From a virus, in the IMG/VR virus record IMGVR_UViG_3300033233_000020, positions 31,071 to 95,070 of that record: a stretch of DNA of 64,000 nt, one strand, 5' to 3'. The translations under genes were made by a program, and so were the position numbers. Under the pieces are notes generated by a model. That model saw only the letters and a list, made by a program, of their open reading frames with translations. It ran no database searches and was not told where the DNA came from. Each line of letters opens with the position of its first letter. The first letter of the stretch is position 1. Of the stretch, positions 26,667 to 44,670 are shown one piece after another.

Positions 26667-26693
26667 TGTCCTAAGCATGACATTAAACTGCTA
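26667..26693 (+). ncRNA. Pseudoknot motif E, copy 1
   Basis: TGTC-CTAAGCAT-GACA-TTAAAC-TGCTA. Confidence 0.75.
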
Positions 26694-26721
26694 CCAACTC
26701 AACCTAACCCAACTAAAGACC

Positions 26722-26934
26722 ATGTCTCAATCTATTTTCGAAATTGAAAACGCATACGTATGCGTCGTGAATGGTGAACCAGAACTATTTGAGACACAAC
26801 AACAAGCAGAAGATCATGCCATGGAACTTAGCTTTGCATGGTATGACGCACAGCTTGATGTCCCTGCTCCGCGATTAGCAGTTATGTCAGTCACCAACTG
26901 GCTAAACCTGCAATCACGATTAGCACTCGTCTGA
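26722..26934 (+). CDS. Early hypothetical protein
   Basis: ATG 28 nt after E1. Confidence 0.6.
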   Translation: MSQSIFEIENAYVCVVNGEPELFETQQQAEDHAMELSFAWYDAQLDVPAPRLAVMSVTNWLNLQSRLALV

Positions 26935-26980
26935 TGTTTGCCCAGAGGGCTTCGGCCCTCTCTGCAGATTTCATATCTGC
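26931..26980 (+). promoter_or_regulatory. Alternative-hairpin element D1
   Basis: AGAGGGC-TTCG-GCCCTCT then GCAGAT-TTCAT-ATCTGC. Confidence 0.55.
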
Positions 26981-27007
26981 TACTCAACTACAACCCAACT
27001 AGGAACT

Positions 27008-27250
27008 ATGTCTCCTTCAAGCGTTGAACATCTACTCACCCAGCAAGCTCGCCTTCTGGCACGTAGAGAAACACCAGTCATCGACCAAGAGCTTGAGAAC
27101 TTACGCCAATCGGCATTGGAAGTATTCTTCCAGTGGCAAGATGGCTTATGTGAGTTCCAAGATCTAACACCTTTCGTTGCCATCCTTGAGAAGAAGGTTG
27201 ATCTCAACCAGTCACTACTCAAGTGGGAACAAGAACACATCACTGACTGA
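27008..27250 (+). CDS. Early hypothetical protein
   Basis: AGGA RBS; helical 80 aa. Confidence 0.65.
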   Translation: MSPSSVEHLLTQQARLLARRETPVIDQELENLRQSALEVFFQWQDGLCEFQDLTPFVAILEKKVDLNQSLLKWEQEHITD

Positions 27251-27252
27251 TC

Positions 27253-27426
27253 ATGGAACAGTTAACTCTTCAACAAACGGCATTACTCAACCGTTACCAC
27301 CGTATTTATGCGGCATGGTTAAAGGTTGAGACTTATGAAATGGATGTCATGCTCTGCGCAGCTTACGCTTCCGCACTTGACACCTGCCTTGCTGCTGACT
27401 TTAATCCTTTTGATTACCCTGAATAG
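27253..27426 (+). CDS. Small hypothetical protein (57 aa)
   Basis: Hand-translated MEQLTLQQTALLNRYHRIY... Confidence 0.55.
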   Translation: MEQLTLQQTALLNRYHRIYAAWLKVETYEMDVMLCAAYASALDTCLAADFNPFDYPE

Positions 27427-27427
27427 A

Positions 27428-27485
27428 CTGATCTCTGCACTTAACCCTGAGTAACACCAGGGCTTTCTGCAGGGTTCACCCCTGC
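27428..27485 (+). promoter_or_regulatory. Alternative-hairpin element D2
   Basis: CCCTG/CAGGG then GCAGGG-TTCAC-CCCTGC. Confidence 0.55.
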
Positions 27486-27511
27486 TCAACACTCACATCA
27501 TTCACAGCACC

Positions 27512-27745
27512 ATGAAAGCATTACTCCTTGCATTAGTTCTGACAACACCCGCCATTGCTCAATCTATTGATCCTATTGCATATGGCGAAAGGTATTGTCT
27601 ATTACGTAAATTGAATATTGATTCTGCAACGGCACGTAAAACTGCTGTTGAATACAGCTATGATACACACCGTAGCCTGGTAAATAGCAAAGAAGATATT
27701 TCTGCTGCTGCTAAATACACAGTTAAGAACTGTCCTGACTTCTAA
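27512..27745 (+). CDS. Small secreted protein
   Basis: Signal peptide MKALLLALVLTTPAIA; YC...CP. Confidence 0.7.
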   Translation: MKALLLALVLTTPAIAQSIDPIAYGERYCLLRKLNIDSATARKTAVEYSYDTHRSLVNSKEDISAAAKYTVKNCPDF

Positions 27746-27774
27746 CCTGAACTACTCACACCTTTGTTAACAGC

Positions 27775-27966
27775 ATGAAACAAATCATCTCACTTGGTAA
27801 CAACCGCTACATTCACCTAGACACTTATGGTGGATACAGGGAATCCCCTCTGTCTAAACTCGTCATGACAACCCTTGTACTAGCTATTGCAGGAATTACT
27901 GCAGGAGCTATGGTTGGCATTGACAGCACCAAGATCAACCCACCTACTCAACACCAAACCAAATGA
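27775..27966 (+). CDS. Small membrane protein
   Basis: Single TM. Confidence 0.6.
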   Translation: MKQIISLGNNRYIHLDTYGGYRESPLSKLVMTTLVLAIAGITAGAMVGIDSTKINPPTQHQTK

Positions 27967-28196
27967 ACACCTATGTAGCACTCATTGCAGATGACAGTGG
28001 CAGATACTGTCACGTCTATGGCACTGCAAACACATGGCATAATTACGTAGACCAACTCGAAGAGCTGGGCTGCGAAGTTGTCGAAAATCAAACCGACGAC
28101 TATGACATACAAGACCTTGGTACCATCGACGATGAAATAGGCGTGGTACCCATCACCAAGCTACTAACATCCACTGACTTTATCCCCTGCAGATAA
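27963..28196 (+). CDS. Acidic hypothetical protein
   Basis: ATGA overlap with upstream gene. Confidence 0.6.
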   Translation: MNTYVALIADDSGRYCHVYGTANTWHNYVDQLEELGCEVVENQTDDYDIQDLGTIDDEIGVVPITKLLTSTDFIPCR

Positions 28197-28570
28197 TGAA
28201 TAACCCACAACATCCCATCACCCCACCGCCGGAGCTGGTGCAGCAGTGGTTGTGCTCAGACGACTACCTGTGGGGTCCGCTTGAGCAGACGTCCATCACC
28301 ATCACGACCAACCGGCTCCAGAACGTCGCCGCCCAAGCCGCCCAATGGGGCGCCGACCAGGAGCTGGAGGGGTGTTGTAGGTGGTTGCCGAAGCTACCCC
28401 CGTGGAGCGCAAACGACCTGCGCAAGCATCGCCGCCCCAAGCCGCCGAGCTTGAAGGAGCAGGCGCTAACTGCGCTACACGCTGTTGCAACAGGATCTAA
28501 TGACACCCGTGAGCAACACCAAGACCTTGACACTATTCGCCAAGCATTAGAGGCATTACCTAATGACTGA
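28196..28570 (+). CDS. Hypothetical protein (HPITPPPELVQQW family)
   Basis: GC-rich; N-terminus shared with the ORF at 35035. Confidence 0.7.
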   Translation: MNNPQHPITPPPELVQQWLCSDDYLWGPLEQTSITITTNRLQNVAAQAAQWGADQELEGCCRWLPKLPPWSANDLRKHRRPKPPSLKEQALTALHAVATGSNDTREQHQDLDTIRQALEALPND

Positions 28571-28772
28571 ACGTGAAAACTTCTACAAGTGGATAAAAAC
28601 CTGTCCACTTACTGACTACAAAATATGTGAGGCAACTCTAACTTCTGTGTCATATGAATTTAACTTCAACACTGTTGAACCAGACATTGATCAACTCATT
28701 GATGATGTATTGATTCATCTAGAGAAATAGCCAATACTACCCATGTATTGGCACATCTTCTAATACATAACC

Positions 28773-28799
28773 AGACCTGAGCATGTCTATAAACTGCTC
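28773..28799 (+). ncRNA. Pseudoknot motif E, copy 2
   Basis: AGAC-CTGAGCAT-GTCT-ATAAAC-TGCTC; stem 1 compensated. Confidence 0.75.
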
Positions 28800-28830
28800 C
28801 GCAAAACCCACATTCAATCCCCTGCAAATC

Positions 28831-29031
28831 ATGCAATCAACCTCTGACTTCATTGATGAGCAACGCAATGCTGACATGCTTGATGCACTGGCAGACATTG
28901 CATACGAACAAGAACAAGCTATGCGTGAATCCGAGCAAAGCGATTGGGATGGCATCGATGAAATATCTGATGCCGAACGCAATGCTTGTGATCACTACAA
29001 CGAACGTTATGTAATCACTACCCATGACTAA
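28831..29031 (+). CDS. Acidic hypothetical protein
   Basis: ATG 31 nt after E2. Confidence 0.6.
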   Translation: MQSTSDFIDEQRNADMLDALADIAYEQEQAMRESEQSDWDGIDEISDAERNACDHYNERYVITTHD

Positions 29032-29121
29032 CAAAGCACCACAAGATGAGGATCTAATACTCATCGCTGTAGCAATCTGCTACACACTATTCACTTTACT
29101 ATTCCAACTCATTTCAGAACT

Positions 29122-29481
29122 ATGGCACTCCTACCTGAACAACTACTCATTGCCGAAGTCGTTGGCTACGAACCCGTCACCAATGACGAAGGCATGCAAC
29201 AATACCCAGCCGACGTTGACTTTCAAGATGCACCCAAAGGTGCCATCCCCTGTACAGGAAACGTCTACAAGAACAAGAAGGGCGTCCTCCGTTGCTACTG
29301 GATTCCAGCCGGTGGCAACTACTCGTCAGAGGAAGGGGACGAACTCACAGGTTGGTACGACGTACCTGACCTCGAAGACATCGAAGAATGGACTTTCGAC
29401 TCAGTCTGCTTCACACCCTGTGACGACGAAGTCGAACCTGACCACCCCGATAGCTGGCTAAGTATCCTTGGCCTTATCTAA
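29122..29481 (+). CDS. Acidic hypothetical protein
   Basis: DIEEWTFDSVC.TP.DDEVEPDHPDSWLSILGLI; strong codon bias. Confidence 0.7.
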   Translation: MALLPEQLLIAEVVGYEPVTNDEGMQQYPADVDFQDAPKGAIPCTGNVYKNKKGVLRCYWIPAGGNYSSEEGDELTGWYDVPDLEDIEEWTFDSVCFTPCDDEVEPDHPDSWLSILGLI

Positions 29482-29498
29482 TTAATTAGATTACGCAT

Positions 29499-29705
29499 TT
29501 AAGGAGCAAACTTCTGCATTTGATTTAATAATCTAATATCTGCTTGTTTTTTTATTACAGGAATGCTTTCATTATTTACAATAGACTCTAAAAAGCTTAT
29601 CACTTTATCTTGCGATGGCATAGAACCATGAGCTTTCATGTATTCTTGTTGCCATCCTTGCAGAAAAGGACTATTACTTATTGAATATCGACCAGCAATT
29701 AACAT
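29499..29705 (-). CDS. AT-rich antisense hypothetical gene (moron-like)
   Basis: Opposite strand; TAAAAT upstream. Confidence 0.45.
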   Translation of the reverse strand: MLIAGRYSISNSPFLQGWQQEYMKAHGSMPSQDKVISFLESIVNNESIPVIKKQADIRLLNQMQKFAP

Positions 29706-29737
29706 CTTATTTACACTATAGATGTTAATATTTTAAC

Positions 29738-29795
29738 CCTGGGCAACCACAATCGCTAAGCACATAGCTTAGAAAGATATGGTGTAAGTCCCAGG
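29738..29795 (+). ncRNA. TGTAAGT-bulge stem-loop C1
   Basis: CCTGGG-CAA-[CCA..CTAAGC/GCTTAG..TGG]-TGTAAGT-CCCAGG. Confidence 0.6.
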
Positions 29796-29811
29796 ATCAA
29801 CCCTCAATTCA

Positions 29812-30096
29812 ATGCAAACCTACCCCGAGTATCCAGTGTCTGACCACGCAAACATCCTACGCATCATCAAGGAACTCAACGAGATCCTTACACGTGAATC
29901 CAAGCGTTACGAAATGGATGAGCACCTGACTCCATCTATGCGCAGCTTATTGGAGGAGGAGATCATTCCTGCACTAGAGAATGAAATCAATTGGGAACCA
30001 AGTGATGCAGACCTTGGCTATGGTGGTGAACCACCTATGACTGCTGATGAAATGCACACTGCTGCATGGCAACAGCACCAAGAACTACATAGGTGA
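29812..30096 (+). CDS. Hypothetical protein
   Basis: GEPPMTADEMHTAAWQQHQELH C-terminus. Confidence 0.65.
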   Translation: MQTYPEYPVSDHANILRIIKELNEILTRESKRYEMDEHLTPSMRSLLEEEIIPALENEINWEPSDADLGYGGEPPMTADEMHTAAWQQHQELHR

Positions 30097-30401
30097 GATA
30101 CTTGTAATCCGAGTAACTACCATCTATTCATAATCCGAATAACAAAGGGCTGGTACGCATTAGTACCTAAGCCTGGTGCGGCCAGGCACCCTTTGTTAAA
30201 CGACGGAATCCCAACGGGAAGAATAGATCACTGGCCAGTGAGGTCTCGAGAACCACACAAAGTCTAACTTTTAATCAAACTTAACTAACTCAGTACAAAT
30301 ACCCAATGAGACTAAGAGATCCCCCCTGCACCCCCCTGGCAACCCACCACCAGCACTATTAGATTTAGAAGTAAGTCCCATGTAATACACATAAGACTTA
30401 C

Positions 30402-30430
30402 TTGCTCTTCCTTGACATCCCTGATAGACT
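30402..30430 (+). promoter_or_regulatory. Sigma70-type promoter
   Basis: TTGCTC-N17-TAGACT. Confidence 0.5.
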
Positions 30431-30455
30431 ACCAACTCATTCACCCACTCATCTC

Positions 30456-30683
30456 ATGCCACTCATGTCACCACTCAACGACGCACCTAAGCCACGCATT
30501 CCAGATGCCATCGACAAGCAACGGCTGCAAGCAATGCAGCTCGTAGCAAAGATGAAAGAATCTGCGGATAAGTACGGCGTTGGTTTCGTCGGCGGCTTCA
30601 TCAGCCCCAACGGACAAAAGTTCATGATGACAAACATGAACGAAGATGACACCAACGCACTCTTGCCGGATGACCTTAAGTGA
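30456..30683 (+). CDS. Hypothetical protein
   Basis: ATG downstream of the promoter. Confidence 0.6.
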   Translation: MPLMSPLNDAPKPRIPDAIDKQRLQAMQLVAKMKESADKYGVGFVGGFISPNGQKFMMTNMNEDDTNALLPDDLK

Positions 30684-30919
30684 TTTACAAATCAATCACT
30701 GATCGTTACGAAAAGATATGGCAGATTACTGCAGAGGTAATTGCCCATCCTCACCGTACGATTACACCTCATGACAAACATCGTGCAACCGTTCTCATCA
30801 GCTTCTTATCCGGAGATGATGAGATGGTTGAATACATTCATTCTCAAATGAATGAAGATGATTTCAAACAGACCAAACAAATCCGCACCTTTGTACATGA
30901 CAAAAAAATCACCCATTAA
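30680..30919 (+). CDS. Hypothetical protein
   Basis: GTGA overlap with upstream gene. Confidence 0.5.
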   Translation: MIYKSITDRYEKIWQITAEVIAHPHRTITPHDKHRATVLISFLSGDDEMVEYIHSQMNEDDFKQTKQIRTFVHDKKITH

Positions 30920-31094
30920 CTTTGACAGAACCATCGCAGGTGTCAACATCACCGAGAATGGTATCAAGTCGTACACTAAATCGTTTCAGCTTGGTCCCTT
31001 CCAGCTGACACTTAATGCTCGTGACTCTGGCGTACATGGATCTATATCCTTGCCAGGCACAGGCTTGAGTAAGAGAAACATTAAGATAATCTAA
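30897..31094 (+). CDS. DUF4236-like small protein
   Basis: FQLGPFQLTLN...SISLPGTGLS. Confidence 0.5.
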   Translation: MTKKSPINFDRTIAGVNITENGIKSYTKSFQLGPFQLTLNARDSGVHGSISLPGTGLSKRNIKII

Positions 31095-31098
31095 AGAT

Positions 31099-31127
31099 AC
31101 GTCCTGAGTATGACGTTAAACTGCTCA
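31099..31127 (+). ncRNA. Pseudoknot motif E, copy 3
   Basis: ACGTC-CTGAGTAT-GACGT-TAAAC-TGCTCA. Confidence 0.8.
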
Positions 31128-31152
31128 TCACTCACCTTCAACTACCACTGCA

Positions 31153-31347
31153 ATGACTACAGCAAAACCATTTGAATCTAATCTCAACATACTTGACCGC
31201 GTTCATGTTGCAAATTGTGCAGCAGAACGTGCACGTATGTACTGCACCGATACCGAAAGGTTCAACGGTGAGTTTGCTACAGTACGCATGTGGACAAACT
31301 ACAAGTGTTTCATCTCGAACTACGGTAGCTACGTAGAAACTTACTAA
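31153..31347 (+). CDS. Hypothetical protein
   Basis: ATG 25 nt after E3. Confidence 0.6.
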   Translation: MTTAKPFESNLNILDRVHVANCAAERARMYCTDTERFNGEFATVRMWTNYKCFISNYGSYVETY

Positions 31348-31604
31348 TGTCTGTCTTATCTATTCACGACACATCAATTGATAACAACCATGTCACAGTT
31401 ACAGCAGTTGTGGAAGACATGCATCTCCTACGCAGAGCAACTCGCGATGACCCTGATCAATGGGGTCCAGGCCTTTGTTCAACATCTTTTGAACTGGCTG
31501 ACGACCAATCAATCCCTACTGATGAAGATGGCTTCTGCAGCTATCTTGATCAGCTTGACCCCCAATGGCAACTCGTTGACCTCTCTGATCGCTACCTAAC
31601 ATGA
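31347..31604 (+). CDS. Hypothetical protein
   Basis: TAATG overlap; VTAVVEDM...DPDQWGPGLC. Confidence 0.65.
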   Translation: MSVLSIHDTSIDNNHVTVTAVVEDMHLLRRATRDDPDQWGPGLCSTSFELADDQSIPTDEDGFCSYLDQLDPQWQLVDLSDRYLT

Positions 31605-31804
31605 TTGGCTTCTCCTTTGAATTCAAACGATGGTATGTAGTAGTACGTGGCCCCAAGGGTACCGTCTACTTAGCCTTTGGCTTTGCTAAGCAAATGCCTG
31701 TGTTCACACCAGCTAAAACTATGACTCTCCAAGAGTACATAGATGATTACAATGATGCCATCGTATTCACTAACGAAAGTGGTGAAGAGTTAATGCGCAT
31801 CTAA
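31601..31804 (+). CDS. Hypothetical protein
   Basis: ATGA overlap. Confidence 0.6.
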   Translation: MIGFSFEFKRWYVVVRGPKGTVYLAFGFAKQMPVFTPAKTMTLQEYIDDYNDAIVFTNESGEELMRI

Positions 31805-31807
31805 TCT

Positions 31808-31837
31808 AACGTCCTGAGTATGACGTTAAACTGCTCA
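31808..31837 (+). ncRNA. Pseudoknot motif E, copy 4
   Basis: Core identical to E3. Confidence 0.8.
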
Positions 31838-31863
31838 CACAATAAATCCACCCTTAACTCACC

Positions 31864-33573
31864 ATGCAGTTCCAACTACCCACAAATTTACAAACTGAGT
31901 TGATTGCGTATGATCCACAGCTCAAGGCTTTGGCTCGTACTCAAAAGCAATCAACAACCAAGAAATCTAAATACCCACTGGGTAATCCTATTGATCTTAT
32001 CCCTAATGAAATCATTACAGCAGAGAGAGTACAAGATGCCATTGATGCAATCAACAAGGCACCAGCCCCTGGTCGTTACCGCGAGTTCACCAAAGTAACG
32101 TCGACAGGTACAATAACCCACGCAGTCCTTTACCACTACGAACAAGTATGGTACGCAGCCTGGCTGCCACCTAAGGGCAAGGAAGCTGACTATATCTATG
32201 GCTATACCTATGCATACAAAGATACAGCTACTGTACGCAAGTTATTGCCACGTGCTTTAAACATGGCAAAAGATGATTGTGTAAACAAACCATCTGGTAG
32301 ATGTACGTTTGTTACTTATACACAACAAGTAACCAAACAAGATGTCATCAATGGAAGAGATACATATAATTGGAACATACCAAACATGCAACGATACGCG
32401 CAAAAATCACAAAATATGCGCGAACCTATTGATCGTTTTGAAAACCAAATTGAAATGTCTATACCTCAATGGAAAGACTCTAGAAATATATTCGAACGTA
32501 TCAAAACCACATGTATTGCAGAGTTATTTACACGTGATTTCCATACTGAATACTGGAAAGACATAAACAAATCCAAGTGGTTACCTTCTGTTGATATTAT
32601 CTTTAGCTTTATTAACAACCAAGATGTACACAGCTCATACAACTTATTCGCTGAAGATCTTTATGGTTATAAAAGTATCTTGCACATATTAGATACACCA
32701 TACTTTCGTAAGTGGATCCAAAACAAATGCAATGAATCTATAGAATCATTTAACAATCCAGATACTGATACAAAGATATCAATTACACAACCATGGCTTA
32801 TGATCTTTCATCTGTGTAAACAGATCAAAACCGTACACAATATCTGGGGAAATGCATGTCCTCTTGATTACTATCAAACAAACCTCAATGCTTTACTCAG
32901 TGTTAGTTATAACTCTGGTTACAGTAAAGACTATGCTTATCCGTGGCTAGTTAAACATATGCCTGTCGCTTCATTCTTTTCACTAGTAAATAAATTTTAC
33001 GAGACAAAGATAGACAACACGTCATCTTATTATTTTACAAACAGAATTGGAATATATCAATATCCTTTTAGGGAACTAGAAGATACATTGTCAATGGTTG
33101 AAACAATCCTCAAAGACAAAGGAGAACTAGCGCCACCAAAACGCTGGCGTATTACTGAGTTCCATGACTATGTACAAGCAGAAGCTTGGAAGATAACTAA
33201 TGTAAATCAAAGGCTACCACAAGACCTATTCCCTGTACCAGTCAAGGTTCAACACAATGAACAGAACTGGACATTCATTCAACCTATCGATACACACCAA
33301 CTTGCAGCCTGGGGTCAAGCCGTACGCAATTGCGTCGGCAATGCCACAGGTTATGCAGAAGGTGTACGCAAGAAACAACACTTTATTGTTCTATGCATGA
33401 TCAACAACCAACCACAGTTCACAGTCCAACTTAAAGTAAGTATGGGCATGATGACCGTTGATCAGATCGCTGGTGTCTCCAATGCCAGGCTAACGGATGA
33501 GCAACGTGAGTCTTATACAAAAGTATTTGGACAAGCGTTGCAACAACGTGAGGAAGTGCTAGCATCTGCTTAG
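31864..33573 (+). CDS. PcfJ-domain protein
   Basis: C-terminal FHD...QPIDTHQLAAWGQAVRNCVG...Y...QFTVQL..QIAG..NA. Confidence 0.7.
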   Translation: MQFQLPTNLQTELIAYDPQLKALARTQKQSTTKKSKYPLGNPIDLIPNEIITAERVQDAIDAINKAPAPGRYREFTKVTSTGTITHAVLYHYEQVWYAAWLPPKGKEADYIYGYTYAYKDTATVRKLLPRALNMAKDDCVNKPSGRCTFVTYTQQVTKQDVINGRDTYNWNIPNMQRYAQKSQNMREPIDRFENQIEMSIPQWKDSRNIFERIKTTCIAELFTRDFHTEYWKDINKSKWLPSVDIIFSFINNQDVHSSYNLFAEDLYGYKSILHILDTPYFRKWIQNKCNESIESFNNPDTDTKISITQPWLMIFHLCKQIKTVHNIWGNACPLDYYQTNLNALLSVSYNSGYSKDYAYPWLVKHMPVASFFSLVNKFYETKIDNTSSYYFTNRIGIYQYPFRELEDTLSMVETILKDKGELAPPKRWRITEFHDYVQAEAWKITNVNQRLPQDLFPVPVKVQHNEQNWTFIQPIDTHQLAAWGQAVRNCVGNATGYAEGVRKKQHFIVLCMINNQPQFTVQLKVSMGMMTVDQIAGVSNARLTDEQRESYTKVFGQALQQREEVLASA

Positions 33574-33622
33574 CTCGCACAGCTTGCCGGTCCTATCCTC
33601 GTAAGTAGGGCCGGTACCACCT

Positions 33623-33847
33623 ATGACTGAACACACTGACGAACAACTCCTAGCCATGGCAATGGCAAACTTAGGAGGATACATTCATGACAACTCACCA
33701 CACTATGTATTAATAGAAGATCCACGTAACGAAGATGACTTTGATACGTGGAGCTATGGTACAGAACCATTACCTAATGACCACACTTGGCGTTCTACAT
33801 CAGTCGATGTAGATGTAAGCCCAAGTGACGCAGACGTGACGGAATAG
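33623..33847 (+). CDS. Acidic hypothetical protein overlapping C2 and the tRNA 5' end
   Basis: ATG ORF of 74 aa. Confidence 0.5.
   Translation: MTEHTDEQLLAMAMANLGGYIHDNSPHYVLIEDPRNEDDFDTWSYGTEPLPNDHTWRSTSVDVDVSPSDADVTE
33784..33827 (+). ncRNA. TGTAAG-bulge stem-loop C2, immediately 5' of the tRNA
   Basis: CACTTGG-CGT-TCTACATC/GATGTAGA-TGTAAGC-CCAAGTG. Confidence 0.6.
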
Positions 33848-33915
33848 GTATACGTAACGCACTTAAAATGCGTCGGCCATTGGCCTTGCGGGTTCAAGTC
33901 CCGCCGTCTGTACCA
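33830..33915 (+). tRNA. trnL: tRNA-Leu (UAA), intron-less, CCA encoded
   Basis: GCAGACG/CGTCTGT acceptor, ACGCA-CTTAAAA-TGCGT anticodon arm, long variable arm, GCGGG-TTCAAGT-CCCGC, ACCA. Confidence 0.93.
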
Positions 33916-33937
33916 ATTATTTACTTAACAAAACATT

Positions 33938-34222
33938 ATGTCTGATTTTAAAACTTTTGGTTCTTGTCTCACTTGTCCTCATTGTTCAAGTGAATATTTA
34001 CATCTTCGTGAAGTTCATGTAATGGCTCGTGACGGTGAGTCTAATGAATACGGTTTATGCATGGATATAAATGTAGAACAATCCACATTTAAATGTGGAA
34101 CTTATATTGACGAAAATACAAGTAAACGTGATGCAACTACATTAACTTTTTGGTGCGAACTATGTGGAAAAGATTCTCAATTAACGTTTGCTCAGGAAAA
34201 AGGACTGACAGCAATTAAATAA
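33938..34222 (+). CDS. Zn-binding hypothetical protein
   Basis: CPHC...YLH and FWCELC. Confidence 0.65.
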   Translation: MSDFKTFGSCLTCPHCSSEYLHLREVHVMARDGESNEYGLCMDINVEQSTFKCGTYIDENTSKRDATTLTFWCELCGKDSQLTFAQEKGLTAIK

Positions 34223-34225
34223 TTA

Positions 34226-34255
34226 TTTGGGCATTGCTTGCATGTAAGTCCCAGA
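34226..34255 (+). ncRNA. TGTAAGT-bulge stem-loop C3
   Basis: TTTGGG-CAT-TGC/GCA-TGTAAGT-CCCAGA. Confidence 0.55.
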
Positions 34256-34291
34256 CAGTAAACCAACTGTAATTTATCTTCAATCAACACA

Positions 34292-34676: not shown

Positions 34677-34704
34677 CCCCTTGTGTAACAGCAAGGGGCT
34701 TTTA
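34677..34704 (+). terminator. Putative intrinsic terminator
   Basis: CCCCTTG...CAAGGGG-CTTTT. Confidence 0.5.
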
Positions 34705-34712
34705 CTTACACA

Positions 34713-35042
34713 ATGCAACCACAAAATCCAAACACTGGAATCAACCTTGATCTTGTTGATGATGTTGTTTATCGGATACCAGAGTGGACATGGTTTGTTG
34801 TTAAGGATCGCTTAGTCACAGACTTAGTAGATGCTATGACAACTACAATACTTGAACGTCTTACTGGTGATCCAGTTGGTGATGATCGTGCCCAAGAAAT
34901 TCTTTATGATTACTATGCATCATCTGACAGAAACAAAGATCTAATTGTTGATTCATTTAAGATCATTGGTGAAGAACAAACTTTGTATTCACTTGATTCT
35001 CTTCAACTAGACAAAATTACTGAGCCTACTAACAATGACTAA
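34713..35042 (+). CDS. Acidic hypothetical protein
   Basis: 109-aa ORF. Confidence 0.65.
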   Translation: MQPQNPNTGINLDLVDDVVYRIPEWTWFVVKDRLVTDLVDAMTTTILERLTGDPVGDDRAQEILYDYYASSDRNKDLIVDSFKIIGEEQTLYSLDSLQLDKITEPTNND

Positions 35043-35523
35043 CCAACACCCCATCACCCCACCGCCGGAGCTGGTGCAGCAGTGGCTCGCTGAGCCAGAA
35101 TACGTTTCTGGATGGAGCGGCAAATGTATGCTGATCAGCATCACCGATCACCGGCTCAGCAACATCGCCGCCAAGGCCGCCCAATGGGGTGCCGACCAAG
35201 AGATGGAGGCCAGGCAGCAGAAGATTCGCTCCGGCCCTGAATCGCCACTAGTGGAGCGCGTCGCTGATGCAATCGCAGCACAGGCCACCTCTGCTGGCAT
35301 CGTCAACGACCGCCCTGCCCGCGCCGCGATCCTTGTGGTGGCGGCGTGGTTGCGAGAAAAGGGCTACGGATCGTGGGTGACACTTGAACAGGAGGCCAAC
35401 CGATGGTTGACTACGCCCGCGCCGTCCTCGCCCGCTGGGGCACACCCGCCAACACTATTAACCAGGAGGACTACGACTGATGGAGGAGCATTACGAATGG
35501 GAGCTGCAAGATTCCAGTGGTGA
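35035..35523 (+). CDS. Chimeric hypothetical protein (HPITPPPELVQQW module plus LVERVADAI module)
   Basis: GC-rich; shares a 42-bp block with 28208-28249. Confidence 0.55.
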   Translation: MTNQHPITPPPELVQQWLAEPEYVSGWSGKCMLISITDHRLSNIAAKAAQWGADQEMEARQQKIRSGPESPLVERVADAIAAQATSAGIVNDRPARAAILVVAAWLREKGYGSWVTLEQEANRWLTTPAPSSPAGAHPPTLLTRRTTTDGGALRMGAARFQW

Positions 35524-36907: not shown

Positions 36908-36908
36908 A

Positions 36909-37223
36909 ATGAATACTACCTTACGTCACAGGCACAATCGAATGAGAGAATCTGAGTTATCAAAAGACGGTAAATCCTTTCACCCTGTTATTAAAAATGT
37001 AGCTCGTGCAATAAGCGACTGGCATTCAGAGCACGATTGGTTTTTTCAAACTGATCGAGCCATTCGTACTATTGATGCTATTGCTGTCGAGCTAAACAAG
37101 GAAGGACACAAGGAAGCTGCCAAGTATTTAGGCAGGATAATTGATGGCAATGAACTTAAAGCTAAGTCTCCAGACTTAGCTGAAACTACAGAAGAAACAA
37201 AGTTTAGTGCTTTGTATTTTTGA
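36909..37223 (+). CDS. Hypothetical protein
   Basis: 104-aa ORF. Confidence 0.55.
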   Translation: MNTTLRHRHNRMRESELSKDGKSFHPVIKNVARAISDWHSEHDWFFQTDRAIRTIDAIAVELNKEGHKEAAKYLGRIIDGNELKAKSPDLAETTEETKFSALYF

Positions 37224-37228
37224 TTATT

Positions 37229-37256
37229 CGTCCTGAGTATGACGTTAAACTGCTTA
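37229..37256 (+). ncRNA. Pseudoknot motif E, copy 5
   Basis: CGTC-CTGAGTAT-GACG-TTAAAC-TGCTTA. Confidence 0.8.
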
Positions 37257-37308
37257 AGTATTACAGATAAGTTTTACTTATCTTCACATCTAACTCAACT
37301 CATCTAAA

Positions 37309-38073: not shown

Positions 38074-38126
38074 CCCTTGCATTTGTGTGGAAGGTCTGTA
38101 GTATTTACATGATCTTCCACATTGTT

Positions 38127-38360
38127 ATGCCCTACGTTATCTCCACAGTTGAAGACAATGTTAATTACTGCATCACTGCAGATAAAGAAACCATGTCATT
38201 CCAATTGATTCCTGTAGAATCAGATTCAGATTTATCACACGTGTTTAGCCATCCTTACCAAAGCGGTGCGTTAAATATCCTTCGTTGGATCCAAGCTAAT
38301 GACCAAGCTCTCGCCAGTAAAGACCTCGTCATTTCCGATGAAGGACGATTCCGGCACTAA
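38127..38360 (+). CDS. Hypothetical protein
   Basis: ORF overlapping the polA start. Confidence 0.5.
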   Translation: MPYVISTVEDNVNYCITADKETMSFQLIPVESDSDLSHVFSHPYQSGALNILRWIQANDQALASKDLVISDEGRFRH

Positions 38361-40164: not shown

Positions 40165-40359
40165 ACATGGAGTCAACTGAACTTCTCATCAATAAAAAAT
40201 CTGATTTAAAAATTGTTTGTCCTGAGCACGGGACACACGACCAGTACATTAGTAGCGCCATTAAAGGATATGAAGGCTATTGGTGCATGTTGTGTTGGCT
40301 TAAAAGTCTTGGTGATCCACTACCAATAAGTCCGTGGTCATAATCAAAAAATAGTTTTT

Positions 40360-40386
40360 CGTCCCAAGTATGACGTTAAACTGCTT
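40360..40386 (+). ncRNA. Pseudoknot motif E, copy 6
   Basis: CGTC-CCAAGTAT-GACG-TTAAAC-TGCTT. Confidence 0.8.
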
Positions 40387-40407
40387 TAACACTACCCTTT
40401 TGATTTC

Positions 40408-41217
40408 ATGAATCAAACATTTGTTTGCGCTCAAACAACCGAAGTCCCTCGCGAAGTTGCCATCAGTGCTACTAACTACGCTATGCGTTGTGCAGTATTG
40501 TTGCCTCCCGTTGGGAACAAAGCTCCAACTTCAATCGAACTTAATGTCTATGGAAAAAGTGCAGAACGTTTCGCTCGTACAACTCGAGGGGCGCAGATCT
40601 ACATTCACGGCGCCAAGCTACGTTTCGATCTGGAGTCCCGTACGTATTCTTTGCATGGAGGAATCATTGCAACGGTGGATGAATCATTCCCGATCCTTAA
40701 CACCGTTATCCTCAGTGGACGTTGCGTTAAAGACATCGATCAAGAAGACGCACGTGCTTTTAAAACAACCGCTGATAAGTTAATGATTTGTAATCAAACT
40801 CTTTCAGTTAACACTGGAAGAAATCAAGCAGATCTATTTAACTTCTATGCAATTAACACTGCACAAGATAAGTTAAATAACGCTGAGCTTTTGGTTAACT
40901 TCACACGTAAAGGTGTGGGTCTTACTATCCAAGGCAAGCTGACTACCGATGCCTGGGTTGATGCAACAACCAAGGAGAAACGGACAGCCACCAAGATTCA
41001 ATTGGTGAACATGACCCTGTCACCTAAAGGCAATGATGGTTCCAAGGCAATCCAGCCGCAAGCAACGGTTGCATCTGAGGGAGAAGCTGCTACCCTATGG
41101 GGTGGTAAGAGTGCTGAAGACGAATCAGACGCTTGGACCAAGACCTCTGGTGGTAGCCTGCCTGATCTTCCTGGTCAGTACGGCCCAGTACCTGAACTAG
41201 CTCACGAACCATTCTAA
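40408..41217 (+). CDS. ssb: Single-stranded DNA-binding protein with two OB folds
   Basis: Two N..(I)LSGR-type starts; KGVGLTIQGKLTTDAWVD; acidic tail ending EPF. Confidence 0.75.
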   Translation: MNQTFVCAQTTEVPREVAISATNYAMRCAVLLPPVGNKAPTSIELNVYGKSAERFARTTRGAQIYIHGAKLRFDLESRTYSLHGGIIATVDESFPILNTVILSGRCVKDIDQEDARAFKTTADKLMICNQTLSVNTGRNQADLFNFYAINTAQDKLNNAELLVNFTRKGVGLTIQGKLTTDAWVDATTKEKRTATKIQLVNMTLSPKGNDGSKAIQPQATVASEGEAATLWGGKSAEDESDAWTKTSGGSLPDLPGQYGPVPELAHEPF

Positions 41218-41226
41218 TTTAAACTA

Positions 41227-41457
41227 ATGATTGATTTTAAAATTGATTCTGAAAATCCGCATTTATTGCATACAGCAATAGCATACGATTTTTTCTTTGA
41301 AAACTATGGTAAATTTCTTGACGCTGCAGTTGCAGCAGGAAAGAATGACATAGAGTTGGTTGATGAAATGGAAAGAATATTAGATCTTTCTTTTGAAATG
41401 GCCAACATGTTTACATCAAAAGTACAACAAGAACAAAAGATTGATGACAACATTTAA
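41227..41457 (+). CDS. Hypothetical protein
   Basis: ORF in the replication operon. Confidence 0.55.
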   Translation: MIDFKIDSENPHLLHTAIAYDFFFENYGKFLDAAVAAGKNDIELVDEMERILDLSFEMANMFTSKVQQEQKIDDNI

Positions 41458-41683
41458 TCAATTTAAGTTTGAAAAGACTGACAGCAATTCAACACTTACT
41501 CTTGAAGTAGGTGCTGATGGTTGCCAAGAGATTGTAGATGAGTTTATTCGTTTTATGCGTGGATGTAGCTTTATAGATGTAAACATCTATGACGCTATGG
41601 AAAATGCAGTCGAAGAACACACTGCTTATCAAAAGCACATTAACCAAGCTGCCAAGCTTGGTCTTCATGTACCAGGTGAATAA
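41444..41683 (+). CDS. Hypothetical protein
   Basis: EIVDEFIRFMRGCSF motif. Confidence 0.6.
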   Translation: MTTFNQFKFEKTDSNSTLTLEVGADGCQEIVDEFIRFMRGCSFIDVNIYDAMENAVEEHTAYQKHINQAAKLGLHVPGE

Positions 41684-41693
41684 GTAAGTCGTC

Positions 41694-41722
41694 ACGTCCT
41701 AGGCAAGACGTAAAACTACCTA
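41694..41722 (+). ncRNA. Pseudoknot motif E, copy 7
   Basis: ACGTC-CTAGGCAA-GACGT-AAAAC-TACCTA. Confidence 0.75.
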
Positions 41723-41743
41723 CCACCCATCTCTGACTTAATT

Positions 41744-42847
41744 ATGACAACCACTCCGGTTGATATGATGAGTAAAGCTTGGATCGATAAGATCGAAGCT
41801 GAAACAAAACCCTCTGAACAAACCTTTAACACATCTAAGAAAATGGCTGTAAAGAAAACTTCTTCTTCCTTGGCTACACGTGGACTGGATTCATTCCTTG
41901 CTTTTCAATCCAAAGAATTTATTTCAGGTTACCAAAACCTCGTCACCCTCCAGCCCCTTAACAAATCCAAGACACGAGGTTGGTTCGTGCGGAACTCAGA
42001 CCTTGACACTTGCGGATGGAGTGCCACTGACAATCAATTTGCTAAAGGTTCAGTTCTCTGGAACTACAAGCAAACTTTTGGTATGGCTCCCAATACTTCA
42101 GTGGAAGAAGGACTCAATTTCACTGAGCCTCGTTTACAAATCCTTTTGCGTTCCCCACTTATGGTTGAGGAAGCTACAGGGATGAGGCAAACGATTGGTA
42201 CGTTTGACAATCCTGATGTCAAAGAACTATGGGATGCAGACAAGCTAGCTGCTGATCTTGCCAACAGCAAAGGCGAGATGTACAAACGTAAGTACAGTGT
42301 ACGTACAAAGTACTTGGTGTACATTCTTACCGAAGACAATGCACGTGCCCACAAGATTCCAATGGTACTTACCTTGAAGGGATTGAATGGCACTGATGTA
42401 TCAGAGAAGGTAAAGCTGTACGAAAAAGAAATGTCTAAGTGTTTGAGCAAGGCGCTGGACTCTGAGATCCCTCTAGCATTTAACGAAAAGTTTTATGCCA
42501 CTACTGTGTTTGCTCCCGTACTTGCTAACGAGATGCGTGGTGCCAACAATGTAGAGATCTGTGCTATTGAATCGTTTGACATTCCAGAATACACCGATCA
42601 AGCAACTGCTGTTGAATCGTTGAGCCGTATGTCAATTCCAGACGAAGATCGTGCTTCTACCTGGAAGTATCAAGAAATGTTCAATGATTACATAAATCAA
42701 CATTCACGGCAAGATGCTGAAAAGCTAGGTGGTGCCTATGGTATCAAGCCTGGCGTACAGATTCTTCCTGCAAATCGTGGCGAAGCAGTTGATGTAAAAG
42801 CATTGCCTGCTCGTGATGAAACTACAGGTGAGGATTTTTCTCTCTGA
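41744..42847 (+). CDS. Conserved-looking protein, possibly DUF5895-like (ssDNA/recombination-associated)
   Basis: 367 aa; RLQILLRSPL and YLVYILTEDN..AHKIPMVLTLKG; family recalled, not verified. Confidence 0.45.
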   Translation: MTTTPVDMMSKAWIDKIEAETKPSEQTFNTSKKMAVKKTSSSLATRGLDSFLAFQSKEFISGYQNLVTLQPLNKSKTRGWFVRNSDLDTCGWSATDNQFAKGSVLWNYKQTFGMAPNTSVEEGLNFTEPRLQILLRSPLMVEEATGMRQTIGTFDNPDVKELWDADKLAADLANSKGEMYKRKYSVRTKYLVYILTEDNARAHKIPMVLTLKGLNGTDVSEKVKLYEKEMSKCLSKALDSEIPLAFNEKFYATTVFAPVLANEMRGANNVEICAIESFDIPEYTDQATAVESLSRMSIPDEDRASTWKYQEMFNDYINQHSRQDAEKLGGAYGIKPGVQILPANRGEAVDVKALPARDETTGEDFSL

Positions 42848-42848
42848 G

Positions 42849-43100
42849 TTAAGACTCTGAGGTAGATATTGGGCCAGGCGTCAAGCTTGGCCCTTTACTT
42901 TCCAAAAGTATTTTCTTCATCAATCCACATATGACTCCCTGCCTTTGTGTTGCAACTGTCAACAACAGAATTGCAATCTCTCGCAATTAACTTACGGAGT
43001 TGCATTCGTTAATCATTCGTTGAGTTTTTTCTTTCCAAAACAAATCATTAATGCTTGGAGCTAGCTCCATACCATCAAACACACCACTGGATTCTTCCAT
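42849..43100 (-). pseudogene. NblA-like ORF interrupted by an in-frame TAA (42987-42989)
   Basis: MEESSGVFDGMELAPSINDLFWKEKTQRMINECNSVS*LREIAILLLTVATQRQGVICGLMKK... Confidence 0.45.
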
Positions 43101-43138
43101 TGGTTTTAAGCAATCAATTCATTCTACCTAAAACAATC

Positions 43139-44104
43139 ATGTCTACACAACTGCTTGAACTTAATGCAGCGCAAACTTTAATTTACAATCGCAGTAATTT
43201 ACGTCGTGCTGTCAAAGATTTTGATGATACGGAAATCGCCGGCATTAGCTTGCGAGATAATCTTGTGGTTGTGGTTCGTACTGATGGTAGTGAGCAAATT
43301 TACCCACGGAAAATAGTTGTTGCTGCCTACCAGGAATACACGAGCCGTCTTAAACATTTCTTTTCTTACCTTGGACCTAACTACCGTGGACCATCGATCT
43401 GGCACAACAACGGCTACGTACTCTTCAAGGGATGGACATACGGCCATGCCCTTGGACACATTACTGCTAATGCAAAACTACAAGCGTCGTGGGCCGATAA
43501 GTTTATCCATATCAATGATCAAACAAAACTGGAGGCGTTACTACAATCAGAACATACGGACATTGGGTATCTCATTGCCCCTGAAGGCTTCCGTCATATG
43601 CAATCAATTGAACTCGGCTCTGCTCTTAATGATTCTCCAGGTGATGACGCTGAGTCACAAGCTGAGAATGATAAGCCTAAAGAATATGCGCCGTATTGCT
43701 CATGCGGATCGTTCAAGAAACAACTAAATAATTTAGTTAATTTCCAACAGGAGATTCTTGGGTACAGGCCGACATGTATCCACATGACCTGGCTGCACAA
43801 GTACAGAGCCCTTCTCTCTGAGCGGTCTAGGGTCAGGACAGAGGTGCGTGGCGGTGCAGCGGTAAAGTGTGTAGCATGGGCTTACGCCCCGCCTGAAGAC
43901 CACATCAGCAAGGGACGCTTTGTTCTATTGCATACCAACTCAGGATCTATGGCACCCATCAGCCACTGGCGTTCCTACAAATCAAACGAGGTGTTTACTG
44001 AAGAACATGCATGGGATCTATTCTTTAATATGCTTGAGGCTGACTATGTACCATTCCCTTTGACATCCTTGCCCCAACTATCTTCTGCGCTTAAGAAAAA
44101 ATGA
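43139..44104 (+). CDS. SWIM zinc-finger protein
   Basis: CSCGSF...PTCIH. Confidence 0.65.
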   Translation: MSTQLLELNAAQTLIYNRSNLRRAVKDFDDTEIAGISLRDNLVVVVRTDGSEQIYPRKIVVAAYQEYTSRLKHFFSYLGPNYRGPSIWHNNGYVLFKGWTYGHALGHITANAKLQASWADKFIHINDQTKLEALLQSEHTDIGYLIAPEGFRHMQSIELGSALNDSPGDDAESQAENDKPKEYAPYCSCGSFKKQLNNLVNFQQEILGYRPTCIHMTWLHKYRALLSERSRVRTEVRGGAAVKCVAWAYAPPEDHISKGRFVLLHTNSGSMAPISHWRSYKSNEVFTEEHAWDLFFNMLEADYVPFPLTSLPQLSSALKKK

Positions 44105-44319
44105 CTGACACCTTTGACCCAGCTAGTTGGGTATACAAGTTACACATTGAAGTTATTAATGAAGAAGACGGATCTGCTACCATTCAAATTGAATGGGATG
44201 AAACAGATTCTGAGCTTGACTATTGGAATAGCTTAGGTAAAGAAGGGCAAGAAAAATTTATTATAGATGCTCTTTATGCTTCATTTGAAAACCTTGGACT
44301 CACTACCAATGACACTTGA
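44101..44319 (+). CDS. Hypothetical protein
   Basis: EEDGSATIQIEWDE motif. Confidence 0.6.
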   Translation: MTDTFDPASWVYKLHIEVINEEDGSATIQIEWDETDSELDYWNSLGKEGQEKFIIDALYASFENLGLTTNDT

Positions 44320-44638
44320 CACCTACGGATTACCAGAAGAAGAGTACCTTTCTGTCTTTGAAGAAAAAGCTGAGTTTGCTTGTAAAGCATTGAATATTGT
44401 ATTGAAGGTAGCAAAAAGTCAAAACATAGATCTTAGTCTTAAATTGTTTTGGGATTTGTACCAGGAGATTGGCTATGCAACAGATGATGCATGCCGTGTA
44501 AAACAAAAACAAGAAGACCCTGAAGCACTTGAAGCGCGTAGTTATTCATCAAGTACTTATCCCACAACGGCTGCAGTTTTTGCTGAGGTGCAAAAACTAG
44601 AAAAGTTAATACAATCTGTTATCGAATCAAAAGAATAA
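44309..44638 (+). CDS. Hypothetical protein
   Basis: ORF in operon. Confidence 0.55.
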   Translation: MTLDTYGLPEEEYLSVFEEKAEFACKALNIVLKVAKSQNIDLSLKLFWDLYQEIGYATDDACRVKQKQEDPEALEARSYSSSTYPTTAAVFAEVQKLEKLIQSVIESKE

Positions 44639-44642
44639 AGTA

Positions 44643-44670
44643 ACGTCCTAGGTATGACGTAAAACTACCC
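44643..44670 (+). ncRNA. Pseudoknot motif E, copy 8
   Basis: ACGTC-CTAGGTAT-GACGT-AAAAC-TACC; stem 2 compensated (GGTA/TACC). Confidence 0.8.

Follow-up and report, generated by a model that had tools for sequence, protein, structure and literature searches.

A predicted 27-nucleotide pseudoknot resembling coremin RNAs recurs at gene boundaries of a cyanophage, other phages, plasmids and bacteria

Introduction

Why should a phage place the same small RNA fold at eight of its gene junctions? The question is raised by a stretch of 64,000 nucleotides (nt), in the following called the window, which comprises bases 31071-95070 of a single 95,070-base-pair (bp) viral contig (IMG/VR record IMGVR_UViG_3300033233_000020) rated complete by CheckV. 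Synechococcus phage S-EIVl is a relative of this phage, the two being 81% identical over 67% of window 31-45 kb. The window carries eight copies of an element, here called the knot, all on the + strand and all intergenic, which from the covariation of its sequences is predicted to fold into an H-type pseudoknot. The fold resembles the coremin RNAs of eukaryotic viruses, it mostly sits shortly after a stop codon, and it is found in unrelated phages, plasmids and bacteria. The explanation we favour, tentatively, is that the knot is a barrier to mRNA decay proceeding from 5' to 3'.

Eight copies at gene junctions of the phage

A degenerate 25-nt pattern matches the window eight times, always on the + strand, where 0.00 matches were expected from 100 shuffles. 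A covariance model recovers the same eight copies at 35-48 bits, both in the window and in the entire 95,070-bp genome; the next best match reaches 8.5 bits only. Seven of the eight junctions have an orthologous copy in S-EIVl. The copies are listed below with stem 1 (S1), stem 2 (S2), the score in the covariance model and the context; S-EIVl orthologues are given by their position in locus L001, and the lengths of the following gene products in amino acids (aa).

Copy 1, 26667..26693, + strand: S1 TGTC/GACA; S2 AGCA/TGCT, 4 bp; 43.7 bits. It lies 7 nt after TGA 26657-26659 and 28 nt before ATG 26722 (70 aa); orthologue L001:4255.
Copy 2, 28773..28799, + strand: S1 AGAC/GTCT, with the middle pair U-A flipped to A-U; S2 GAGCA/TGCTC, 5 bp; 35.2 bits. 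It lies 42 nt after the stop codon 28728-28730 and 31 nt before ATG 28831; the same variant is found in a relative, L002:754.
Copy 3, 31100..31126, + strand: S1 CGTC/GACG; S2 GAGTA/TGCTC, 5 bp including one U-G; 46.9 bits. It lies 5 nt after TAA 31092-31094 and 26 nt before ATG 31153 (64 aa); orthologue L001:7739 has GGTC/GACC, a compensatory change.
Copy 4, 31810..31836, + strand: S1 CGTC/GACG; S2 GAGTA/TGCTC; 47.7 bits. It lies 5 nt after TAA 31802-31804 and 27 nt before ATG 31864 (PcfJ-like protein, 569 aa); orthologue L001:8458 has TGTC/GACA.
Copy 5, 37229..37255, + strand: S1 CGTC/GACG; S2 GAGTA/TGCTT, 5 bp including two wobbles; 43.8 bits. It lies 5 nt after TGA 37221-37223 and 53 nt before ATG 37309 (GP88-like protein, 254 aa); orthologue L001:13665 has TGTC/GACA and AAGCA/TGCTT.
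Copy 6, 40360..40386, + strand: S1 CGTC/GACG; S2 AAGTA/TGCTT; 42.5 bits. It lies 16 nt after TAA 40341-40343 and 21 nt before ATG 40408 (SSB, 269 aa); orthologue L001:16754.
Copy 7, 41695..41721, + strand: S1 CGTC/GACG; S2 AGGCA/TACCT, four of five pairs with one C-A mismatch; linker TAAAAC; 35.4 bits. It lies 11 nt after TAA 41681-41683 and 22 nt before ATG 41744 (DUF5895 protein, 367 aa); orthologue L001:18098 has GGCA/TGCC, fully paired.
Copy 8, 44644..44670, + strand: S1 CGTC/GACG; S2 GGTA/TACC, 4 bp; linker TAAAAC; 38.2 bits. It lies 5 nt after TAA 44636-44638 and 23 nt before ATG 44694 (40 aa); orthologue L001:21348 has AGTC/GACT and GAGCA/TACTC, the pair L4-D4 of stem 2 having changed from G-C to A-U.

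An earlier reading of the sequence (the original prediction) had reported eight intergenic copies ahead of, among others, the ssb, PcfJ-like, GP88-like and 367-aa genes. All eight are present, three of the starts given there carrying one or two extra 5' bases, and Pfam confirms the gene products, the last being the DUF5895 protein. The distance of 21-31 nt to the next ATG holds as well; for copy 5 it is 53 nt and not the 52 nt given at first.

Evidence for the fold

The paired core is 27 nt long and can be written N-G-T-C / C-Y / R-R-G-Y-A / T / G-A-C-N' / W-W-A-A-A-C / T-R-C-Y-Y. Stem 1 consists of 4 bp between the arms N-G-U-C and G-A-C-N'. Stem 2 consists of 4-5 bp and joins the 8-nt loop of stem 1 (R-R-G-Y-A) to the bases which follow immediately after the A-rich linker W-U-A-A-A-C (T-R-C-Y-Y). 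Together the two stems give about 9 coaxial bp, and the minor groove of stem 1 presumably accommodates the linker.

Stem 1 is paired at four of four positions in all copies of the window (CGTC/GACG six times, TGTC/GACA and AGAC/GTCT once each). Stem 2 has five of five pairs in five copies and four of five in the other three, namely copy 7 with its C-A mismatch and copies 1 and 8 which lack the outer pair. When the window copies are compared with their S-EIVl orthologues, the outer pair of stem 1 is swapped on both sides in four of seven cases (C-G to G-C, U-A, U-A and A-U).

The original prediction stated that the two stems covary independently of each other. This was borne out on two sets of sequences, each of them blind to the stem which was tested: set A1 comprises 150 sequences found with a pattern blind to the 3' arm of stem 2, and set A2 about 150 sequences picked blind to stem 1. 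The paired cells amount to 93.1% in A1 vs 85.7% in shuffles, and the covariation score was reached by none of 500 shuffles; for A2 none of 500 shuffles reached any of the five measures used. Over both sets 93-95% of the cells are paired, compared to 23-55% in controls where the arms were slid against each other (23-52% for A2). The substitutions themselves are of the kind a helix would allow. For the stem-2 pair L4-D4, set A1 has AU 72 times, GC 65 times, GU 5 times and other combinations 8 times. For the second pair of stem 1 (columns 2-15), set A2 has GC 135, CG 4, AU 3 and UA 3, and for the third pair (columns 3-14) UA 128, AU 14, CG 2 and GC 1. Counted over 193 distinct cores, L4-D4 is A-T in 94, G-C in 84, G-T in 6 and something else in 9, and at the pair L6-D2 an A faces T in 31% and C in 5%. 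Among the bacterial matches listed from the genome scan described below, about 114 of 121 have four or five of the five possible pairs in the 3' arm, which was outside the search pattern and would pair to this extent by chance in about 7%.

G-U pairs are frequent in both stems. The knot nearly always points the same way as the genes on either side of it, and no more than 7 of 270 instances fall within any open frame. Since both stems covary, with G-U pairs, in elements which follow gene orientation and stay mostly outside open frames, the element is, judged by its sequences, an H-type pseudoknot formed by the single-stranded transcript. Moreover, a scan for sigma-70 promoters, which have -35 and -10 hexamers spaced by 16-18 nt, over window 25.5-45.4 kb gave no promoter-like site overlapping any copy and no conserved -35 sequence; what is conserved in the knot follows its base pairs. 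The claim that we are dealing with a single-strand fold rather than a promoter in double-stranded DNA is thus upheld by the covariation of both stems as well as by the lack of a sigma-70-like site in that region.

Each stem alone is weak, from 0 to -3.7 kcal/mol, so the strongly conserved unpaired bases (the C after stem 1, the U before the 3' arm and the UAAAC of the linker) point to tertiary contacts. The AAAC of the linker had been described as invariant. This is true for the window, and two of the S-EIVl orthologues have AAAA and AAAG. Since the loci were fetched with a pattern in which the linker was fixed, its constancy outside the window is partly a matter of ascertainment.

Position relative to stop codons, start codons and tRNA genes

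A feature which the original prediction did not mention is the distance to the preceding stop codon. The gaps in the window are 5, 5, 5, 5, 7, 11, 16 and 42 nt. Of 167 viral instances, 46 have a stop-to-knot gap of exactly 5 nt, a sharp mode; the gap is almost never shorter, and 103 of the 150 viral instances with an upstream stop have a gap of 5-11 nt. The viral knot-to-start gap is concentrated at 20-31 nt. The bacterial copies remain closely tied to the stop, and their distances to the next start vary widely. Across all contexts the stop before the knot constrains its position more tightly than the start after it. The viral and bacterial counts here and below rest on the matches listed from the scans described under Distribution. 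With these spacings the knot lies just outside the footprints of both the terminating and the initiating ribosome.

The neighbour downstream does not have to be a protein gene. At least eight independent cases have a tRNA gene 2-12 nt (often 2-4 nt) downstream of the knot, in the order ORF (open reading frame) stop, about 5 nt, knot, 2-12 nt, tRNA; two of the cases (loci L094 and L113) lie between two tRNA genes. Because the knots also adjoin tRNA genes, and in two cases stand between them, their role is not specific to translation.

Terminator-like hairpins followed by a U-tract are found after ORF ends at three sites on the + strand of the window:

30171-30187, + strand: terminator-like hairpin and U-tract.
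34677-34698, + strand: terminator-like hairpin and U-tract.
42871-42893, + strand: terminator-like hairpin and U-tract.

No such site adjoins a knot, from which it follows that the knots are located within transcription units and not at their ends. An intrinsic terminator follows 13 of 108 bacterial copies.

The original prediction linked the knots to start codons without a Shine-Dalgarno (SD) sequence. Crude gene calling on the + strand of window 24-49 kb gives 52 genes, and 43 of these have no SD sequence, knot or no knot. SD-less starts are the rule in the region, so the link is incidental; elsewhere the knot precedes genes with a clear SD sequence, tRNA genes and other RNAs.

Relation to coremin and other known elements

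The closest known counterpart of the knot is coremin (xrRNA-C, a class of exoribonuclease-resistant RNA), described from eukaryotic RNA viruses, beny- and cucumoviruses among them (Dilweg et al., 2019, PMC6546385; Dilweg et al., 2023, PMC10321173, PMC10520033). Coremin has a first hairpin, hp1, with a G-U-C/G-A-C stem and a loop YGAD or YGNNAD, then a spacer of 10 nt, G-UUAAAC-UAC, in which A16-A20 are essential for stalling of Xrn1, and right after the spacer a second hairpin, hp2, which is obligatory for Xrn1 resistance. RNAs of this type stall Xrn1, block scanning ribosomes and stimulate -1 frameshifting, and viral candidates with loops of 5-8 nt are known. In a variant called xrRNA-WCC, nucleotides 6-8 of the hp1 loop form antiparallel Watson-Crick pairs with spacer nucleotides 18-20; this variant is also Xrn1-resistant and stimulates -1 frameshifting (PMC6546385, PMC10321173, PMC10520033). 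The three-dimensional structure of coremin was still unsolved in the 2023 papers.

The knot has the same first stem, G-U-C/G-A-C with a C-G closing pair. Seven of the eight window copies have the GTC/GAC stem, as do about 90% of the 149 sequences which were picked without regard to stem 1, and the variants are compensated. As in coremin, the loop begins with a pyrimidine and closes with an A and then U/A. The spacer N-UUAAAC-U-(A/G)-C is shared almost base for base, and all eight window copies have N-(T/A)(T/A)AAAC-T-(G/A)-C. The loop pairs with the spacer and the pairing covaries, though its register is not that of xrRNA-WCC. Both kinds of element are small and often present in several copies per genome; coremin works in cis, as the knot would.

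There are differences too. The loop of the knot is 8 nt, C-Y-R-R-G-Y-A-U, with Y instead of G as its second base, and so it fits neither YGAD nor YGNNAD. Stem 2 of the knot has 5 bp and uses spacer positions 19-23 instead of 18-20, the register being shifted by one. The carriers of the knot are DNA phages, plasmids and bacteria, all of them without Xrn1. No paper linking coremin to phages or bacteria was found in the searchable literature, and in three papers on coremin neither bacteria nor phages are named. Rfam 15 has no family for the knot: a scan of the window at gathering scores yields only a tRNA, and with E up to 10 over window 31050-31900 there is no match on either of the two copies there (preQ1, pistol and RAGATH included). 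The knot is thus an uncatalogued fold, absent from Rfam and from the searchable literature, and by its sequence features a variant of the coremin-type pseudoknot in a new biological realm.

Recoding pseudoknots, such as those of the BWYV (beet western yellows virus) -1 frameshift type and of the MuLV (murine leukaemia virus) gag-pol read-through, have their knot 5-8 nt from the decoding site. They belong to the same fold class, have the same size and an A-rich loop 3 over stem 1, and their spacing is similar to the stop-to-knot spacing seen here. They differ in that our knots are followed by genes which start at their own ATGs 21-53 nt further on, and that knots occur in tRNA arrays as well. 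No slippery heptamer was seen by eye near the knots, nor any extended frame.

Gram-positive bacteria and their phages have 5' stabilisers (5' stem-loops, the cryIIIA STAB-SD, the leader of phage SP82), which are cis elements halting 5'-to-3' decay and protecting the RNA downstream. These are 5'-terminal hairpins or ribosome-binding sequences, in contrast to an internal conserved pseudoknot found across phyla. The T4 gene 32 operator and the preQ1-I riboswitch are small H-type pseudoknots in leaders, the latter also with an A-rich tail; the first is a single site bound by its own gene product, and the second is tied to queuosine genes and shows no similarity to the knot in the Rfam search mentioned above.

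Distribution

The IMG/VR collection was scanned with a pattern which fixed only stem 1, the loop and the linker, and the same pattern was run on one genome per prokaryotic species. The first scan gave at least 119 loci in viral contigs and the second at least 120 bacterial loci in many phyla, where about 35 matches are expected by chance in the genome scan (1.2e12 positions x 2.9e-11). Carrier genomes have 1-4 copies. Cultured phages with the knot include mycobacteriophage Labelle, B166-type Staphylococcus phages (where the knot belongs to the late head operon), the T4-like cyanomyoviruses S-H35, S-RIM4 and S-SM2, Nostoc phage NMeng1, Geobacillus phage D6E, and phages of Paracoccus, Lactobacillus and Moorella. 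The bacterial loci belong to Planctomycetota, Omnitrophota, Desulfobacterota, Bacillota, Patescibacteria, Zixibacteria and others. Taken together the carriers span Cyanobacteria, Bacillota, Actinomycetota, Planctomycetota, bacteria of the candidate phyla radiation and Acinetobacter plasmids.

The plasmids are small and of the Rep type, and the knot lies in non-coding DNA a few hundred bases from rep:

L255, Acinetobacter baumannii plasmid p86G, NZ_CP139209.1 ~2942-2972: AGTC/GACT with GAGCA/TGTTC.
L256, Acinetobacter plasmid: a variant with a 10-nt loop.

One Synechococcus metagenome-assembled genome carries copies, and none of the other members of its family does (10 genomes in all); in cyanobacteria the motif thus looks like something borne by mobile elements rather than a housekeeping function.

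An observation from Staphylococcus phage B166 belongs here. A BPROM 'promoter P5R' is annotated exactly on the knot, which has a CGAC/GTCG stem and lies between a head-morphogenesis gene and ORF41 (L251, KP893289.1 21047-21083). The annotation is probably a mistake.

A proposed barrier to 5'-to-3' decay

What has been observed are the copies, the covariation of the fold, the position rules, the distribution and the match with coremin; the barrier function, its direction and the enzymes involved we infer. The hypothesis is that each copy is transcribed within the long + strand messages of the early/replication region and folds into a compact pseudoknot, which would act in cis and without any dedicated protein against decay machinery moving from 5' to 3'. 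Candidates in the Synechococcus host would be RNase J, an exonuclease, and/or RNase E, which would scan the RNA from a 5'-monophosphate end. Decay begun in the upstream cistron would stop at the knot, sparing the cistron, tRNA or leader that follows and leaving it with a defined 5' end, so that the operon would be split into segments of independent stability. The knot stands as far upstream in the gap as possible, at least 5 nt past the stop and at least 20 nt before the next start. Being outside the terminating and the initiating ribosome, it should stay folded even on RNA which is being translated.

Two lines of published work make this conceivable. A flaviviral xrRNA blocks the bacterial RNase J1. 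Since a viral xrRNA also stops a bacterial enzyme, such blocks are mechanical and not specific for the enzyme. Secondly, H-type pseudoknots of 8-15 coaxial bp in E. coli shield downstream sites from scanning by RNase E that starts at a 5'-monophosphate end, which tandem hairpins do not (Richards and Belasco, 2023, PMC9943677). That pseudoknots and not tandem hairpins obstruct RNase E would explain why a pseudoknot of about 9 coaxial bp, rather than a hairpin, is found at cistron boundaries. The likeness to the obstacles in that study lies in some 8-11 coaxial bp between an upstream entry and downstream sites, the directional protection having been found there. The difference is that the study used reporters in E. 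coli with engineered heterologous pseudoknots of viral origin; a natural bacterial or phage element with such a role is not described in the paper.

The original prediction had suggested an RNase J-blocking element resembling xrRNAs. An xrRNA-like roadblock is reasonable given the stem 1 and linker shared with coremin, whereas a role specific to RNase J cannot be general. RNase J (TIGR00649 above cut-off) is encoded by 3 of 10 motif-bearing bacterial genomes, and one of the negative genomes was deposited as a Zixibacteria chromosome of 3.8 Mb; bona fide copies are found on Acinetobacter plasmids, too. RNase J alone can therefore not explain the knot, and we have rejected it as the sole general target. 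RNase E/G is present in all five of the RNase J-negative carrier genomes (seven in total) in which it was looked for, which is a weak test since the enzyme is expected in most bacteria.

Several observations weigh against the barrier. Since the knot keeps a more uniform distance from the stop codon than from the next start, it could act at gene ends or in termination. The knot is often found 2-4 nt before tRNA genes, where a 5' shield has no obvious use because RNase P would cut the knot off. The hp2 of coremin is absent, there being no conserved hairpin after the spacer: the knots are followed by unstructured C/A-rich leaders, by tRNAs or by varied sequences, and in the window only the leader of copy 5 has a hairpin. 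In E. coli, RNase E was hindered only modestly by pseudoknots of 8-11 bp (PMC9943677). Finally, two 36-nt queries found no copy in 5,426 E. coli genomes, a weak point as blastn sees only about 20 or more identical bases there. Because of the anchoring to stops, the position at tRNA 5' ends, the missing hp2 and the modest effect of small pseudoknots, we regard the barrier as a possible explanation, which we prefer to the others without calling it probable.

Alternative explanations

The first alternative turns the knot around, making it a cap at the 3' end of the upstream cistron which blocks 3'-to-5' exonucleases after a cut downstream by RNase P, RNase E/Y or a nearby ribozyme. The sharp peak of the stop-to-knot gap, together with the broad knot-to-start distance in bacteria, speaks for such a cap. 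RNase P acting on the stop-knot-tRNA arrangements would leave the knot 2-12 nt from the new 3' end, and pistol, twister and RAGATH-5 ribozymes occur in the same loci as knots. On the other hand, the conserved stem 1 and A-rich linker, with coremin as the parallel, suit resistance to a force from the 5' side. Where the knot stands between two tRNA genes, a block on the 3' side would interfere with the trimming of the tRNA before it, and the bacterial copies followed by an intrinsic terminator already have 3' protection from it. We consider the cap rather unlikely, and still worth keeping in mind.

A second alternative is an element directed at the ribosome. Standing at the mRNA entrance of a ribosome on the stop codon, the knot would stop read-through or sliding, uncouple the cistrons, or pause ribosomes on a leader ORF. 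The minimum spacing of 5 nt puts the 5' edge of the knot about 12 nt from the P-site codon, as for frameshift and read-through pseudoknots, and the effects of coremin RNAs on scanning ribosomes and frameshifting are in line with this. At about 55 bacterial loci a conserved micro-ORF, described below, enters the knot or stops 4 nt before it, and in examples of both arrangements there are 7 nt from the last conserved Cys codon to the knot. Against this stand the tRNA-array copies (L094, L113), which have no preceding ORF, and the lack of a slippery heptamer, with the next genes having their own starts in varying frames. We think it unlikely that the ribosome is the target.

The knot could also be a place where a conserved host factor, be it an endoribonuclease, RNase P or an RNA-binding protein, recognises or processes the RNA, cutting or marking it at gene boundaries. 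Several unpaired bases are strongly conserved, and the knot keeps company with tRNAs and self-cleaving ribozymes, likewise elements of the punctuation type. However, carriers from many phyla and plasmids share few RNA-binding factors, and in coremin the same conserved bases serve an activity which needs no protein. This makes a host-factor site improbable.

The original prediction also offered a translation enhancer or standby site, for instance one recruiting ribosomal protein S1 to the following SD-less gene. In S-EIVl-like phages the knot does stand regularly 20-31 nt before an ATG, and the leaders are C/A-rich and without SD. But the genes of the region lack SD regardless of the knot, many knot-free leaders are equally C/A-rich, and elsewhere the knot precedes genes with a strong SD at variable distance, tRNAs and non-coding RNAs; copies inside tRNA arrays in particular do not fit recruitment of S1. 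We give the enhancer very little credence. Still less can be said for an operator bound by a phage-encoded protein by analogy with T4 gene 32, a proposal from the same source. Eight copies in one functional module including ssb would suit it, yet near-identical copies are found in Staphylococcus siphoviruses, a mycobacteriophage, T4-like cyanomyoviruses, plasmids and chromosomes which have no obvious phage protein in common. Since unrelated phages, plasmids and bacteria share the same 27-mer, an operator is most unlikely.

A DNA promoter with TAAACT as a -10-like hexamer and a start site a few bases after the motif can be virtually dismissed: the match to TAnnnT, implied start sites giving 15-25-nt leaders or the 5' ends of adjacent tRNAs, and the BPROM label in phage B166, which is a prediction only, stand against two interlocked covarying stems with G-U pairs that recognition of a duplex leaves unexplained, a would-be -7 T lost in about 10% of copies, and a 'hexamer' which with its flanks consists of the bases essential in the plant-virus RNA element.

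Neighbouring elements at bacterial and viral loci

A tiny conserved ORF precedes many bacterial knots or runs into them:

L216:6852-6926, - strand: micro-ORF.
L159:6959-7024, + strand: micro-ORF.
L184:261-335, + strand: micro-ORF.

The same is seen at about 55 other loci. The core of the peptide is M..(K/R)(R/K)(F/Y/W)M(L/I)(R/P)(P/R)(V/I)AHC(K/S/D)(E/G)G(C/H). At many loci the last codons with the TGA make up the 5' half of the knot, the peptide ending in ..S(R/W)(A/V). Wobble at third codon positions tells that the micro-ORF is coding, and it has no Pfam or NCBIfam match. The sequence CTGCAGTAGAT upstream of bacterial copies was considered as a Cas12a-type repeat and rejected, as its third-position wobble shows it to be codons of the micro-ORF. 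The genes which follow at L216 code for Rrf2, ferredoxin, hybrid-cluster protein, desulfoferrodoxin and flavodiiron protein, and look like an operon for oxidative/nitrosative stress.

Two kinds of element are found downstream of knots. The first is a conserved structured RNA of about 40 nt directly 3' of the knot:

L023:1045-1085, + strand: ~40-nt structured RNA.
L041, ~1560-1605, - strand: ~40-nt structured RNA.

It is present also at L020, L072, L093, L114 and L140. It consists of an outer stem of 6 bp, AAU(A)UCAG and the inner hairpin GCC..GGC, and it has no match in Rfam; pistol, twister-P5 and RAGATH-5 ribozymes are located 1-4 kb away in these loci. The second, GCGU(U/G)U(C/U)(U/C)GGUU..(A/G)(A/U)GAGUC(A/G)GA(A/U)GGGCAA, recurs in loci of Bacillota and phages, some 5-15 nt downstream of the knot (L080, L123, L154, L157, L119, L225). 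It looks riboswitch-like and is not named by Rfam at gathering score.

Other features of the window

33830-33915, + strand: tRNA-Leu(UAA) in the early region, 56 bits in Rfam.
49700-49773, - strand: odd tRNA-like gene with a 2-base 'anticodon', found by ARAGORN.
28196-28570 and 35035-35523, + strand: two ORFs with 80-98% identical 5' regions (28208-28370 and 35044-35209), a local gene duplication.
24867-24900 and 25331-25364: another repeated stem-loop between genes (GGGGCTGCGCATC...CGCAGA), 5' of the block of knots.

Implications

A widespread, tiny and strongly covarying RNA motif outside Rfam is a gap in annotation, and the near-identity with coremin provides many natural sequence variants for structural study of that fold. 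Going further, and with more reservation than for the barrier as such, the knot might be the first natural class of nuclease- or scanning-resistant RNA in prokaryotes: a protein-independent roadblock of 27 nt at gene boundaries of phages, plasmids and bacteria, similar by descent or by convergence to the coremin of plant and fungal RNA viruses, with which phage operons would be punctuated into stable segments. If this is true, roadblocks of the xrRNA type would not be confined to eukaryotic RNA viruses, and the obstacles to RNase E scanning so far shown with engineered reporters would have a natural case. A 27-nt portable insulator for synthetic operons would become available. For the phages themselves, the knot would explain how the stability of single cistrons is tuned within long operons.

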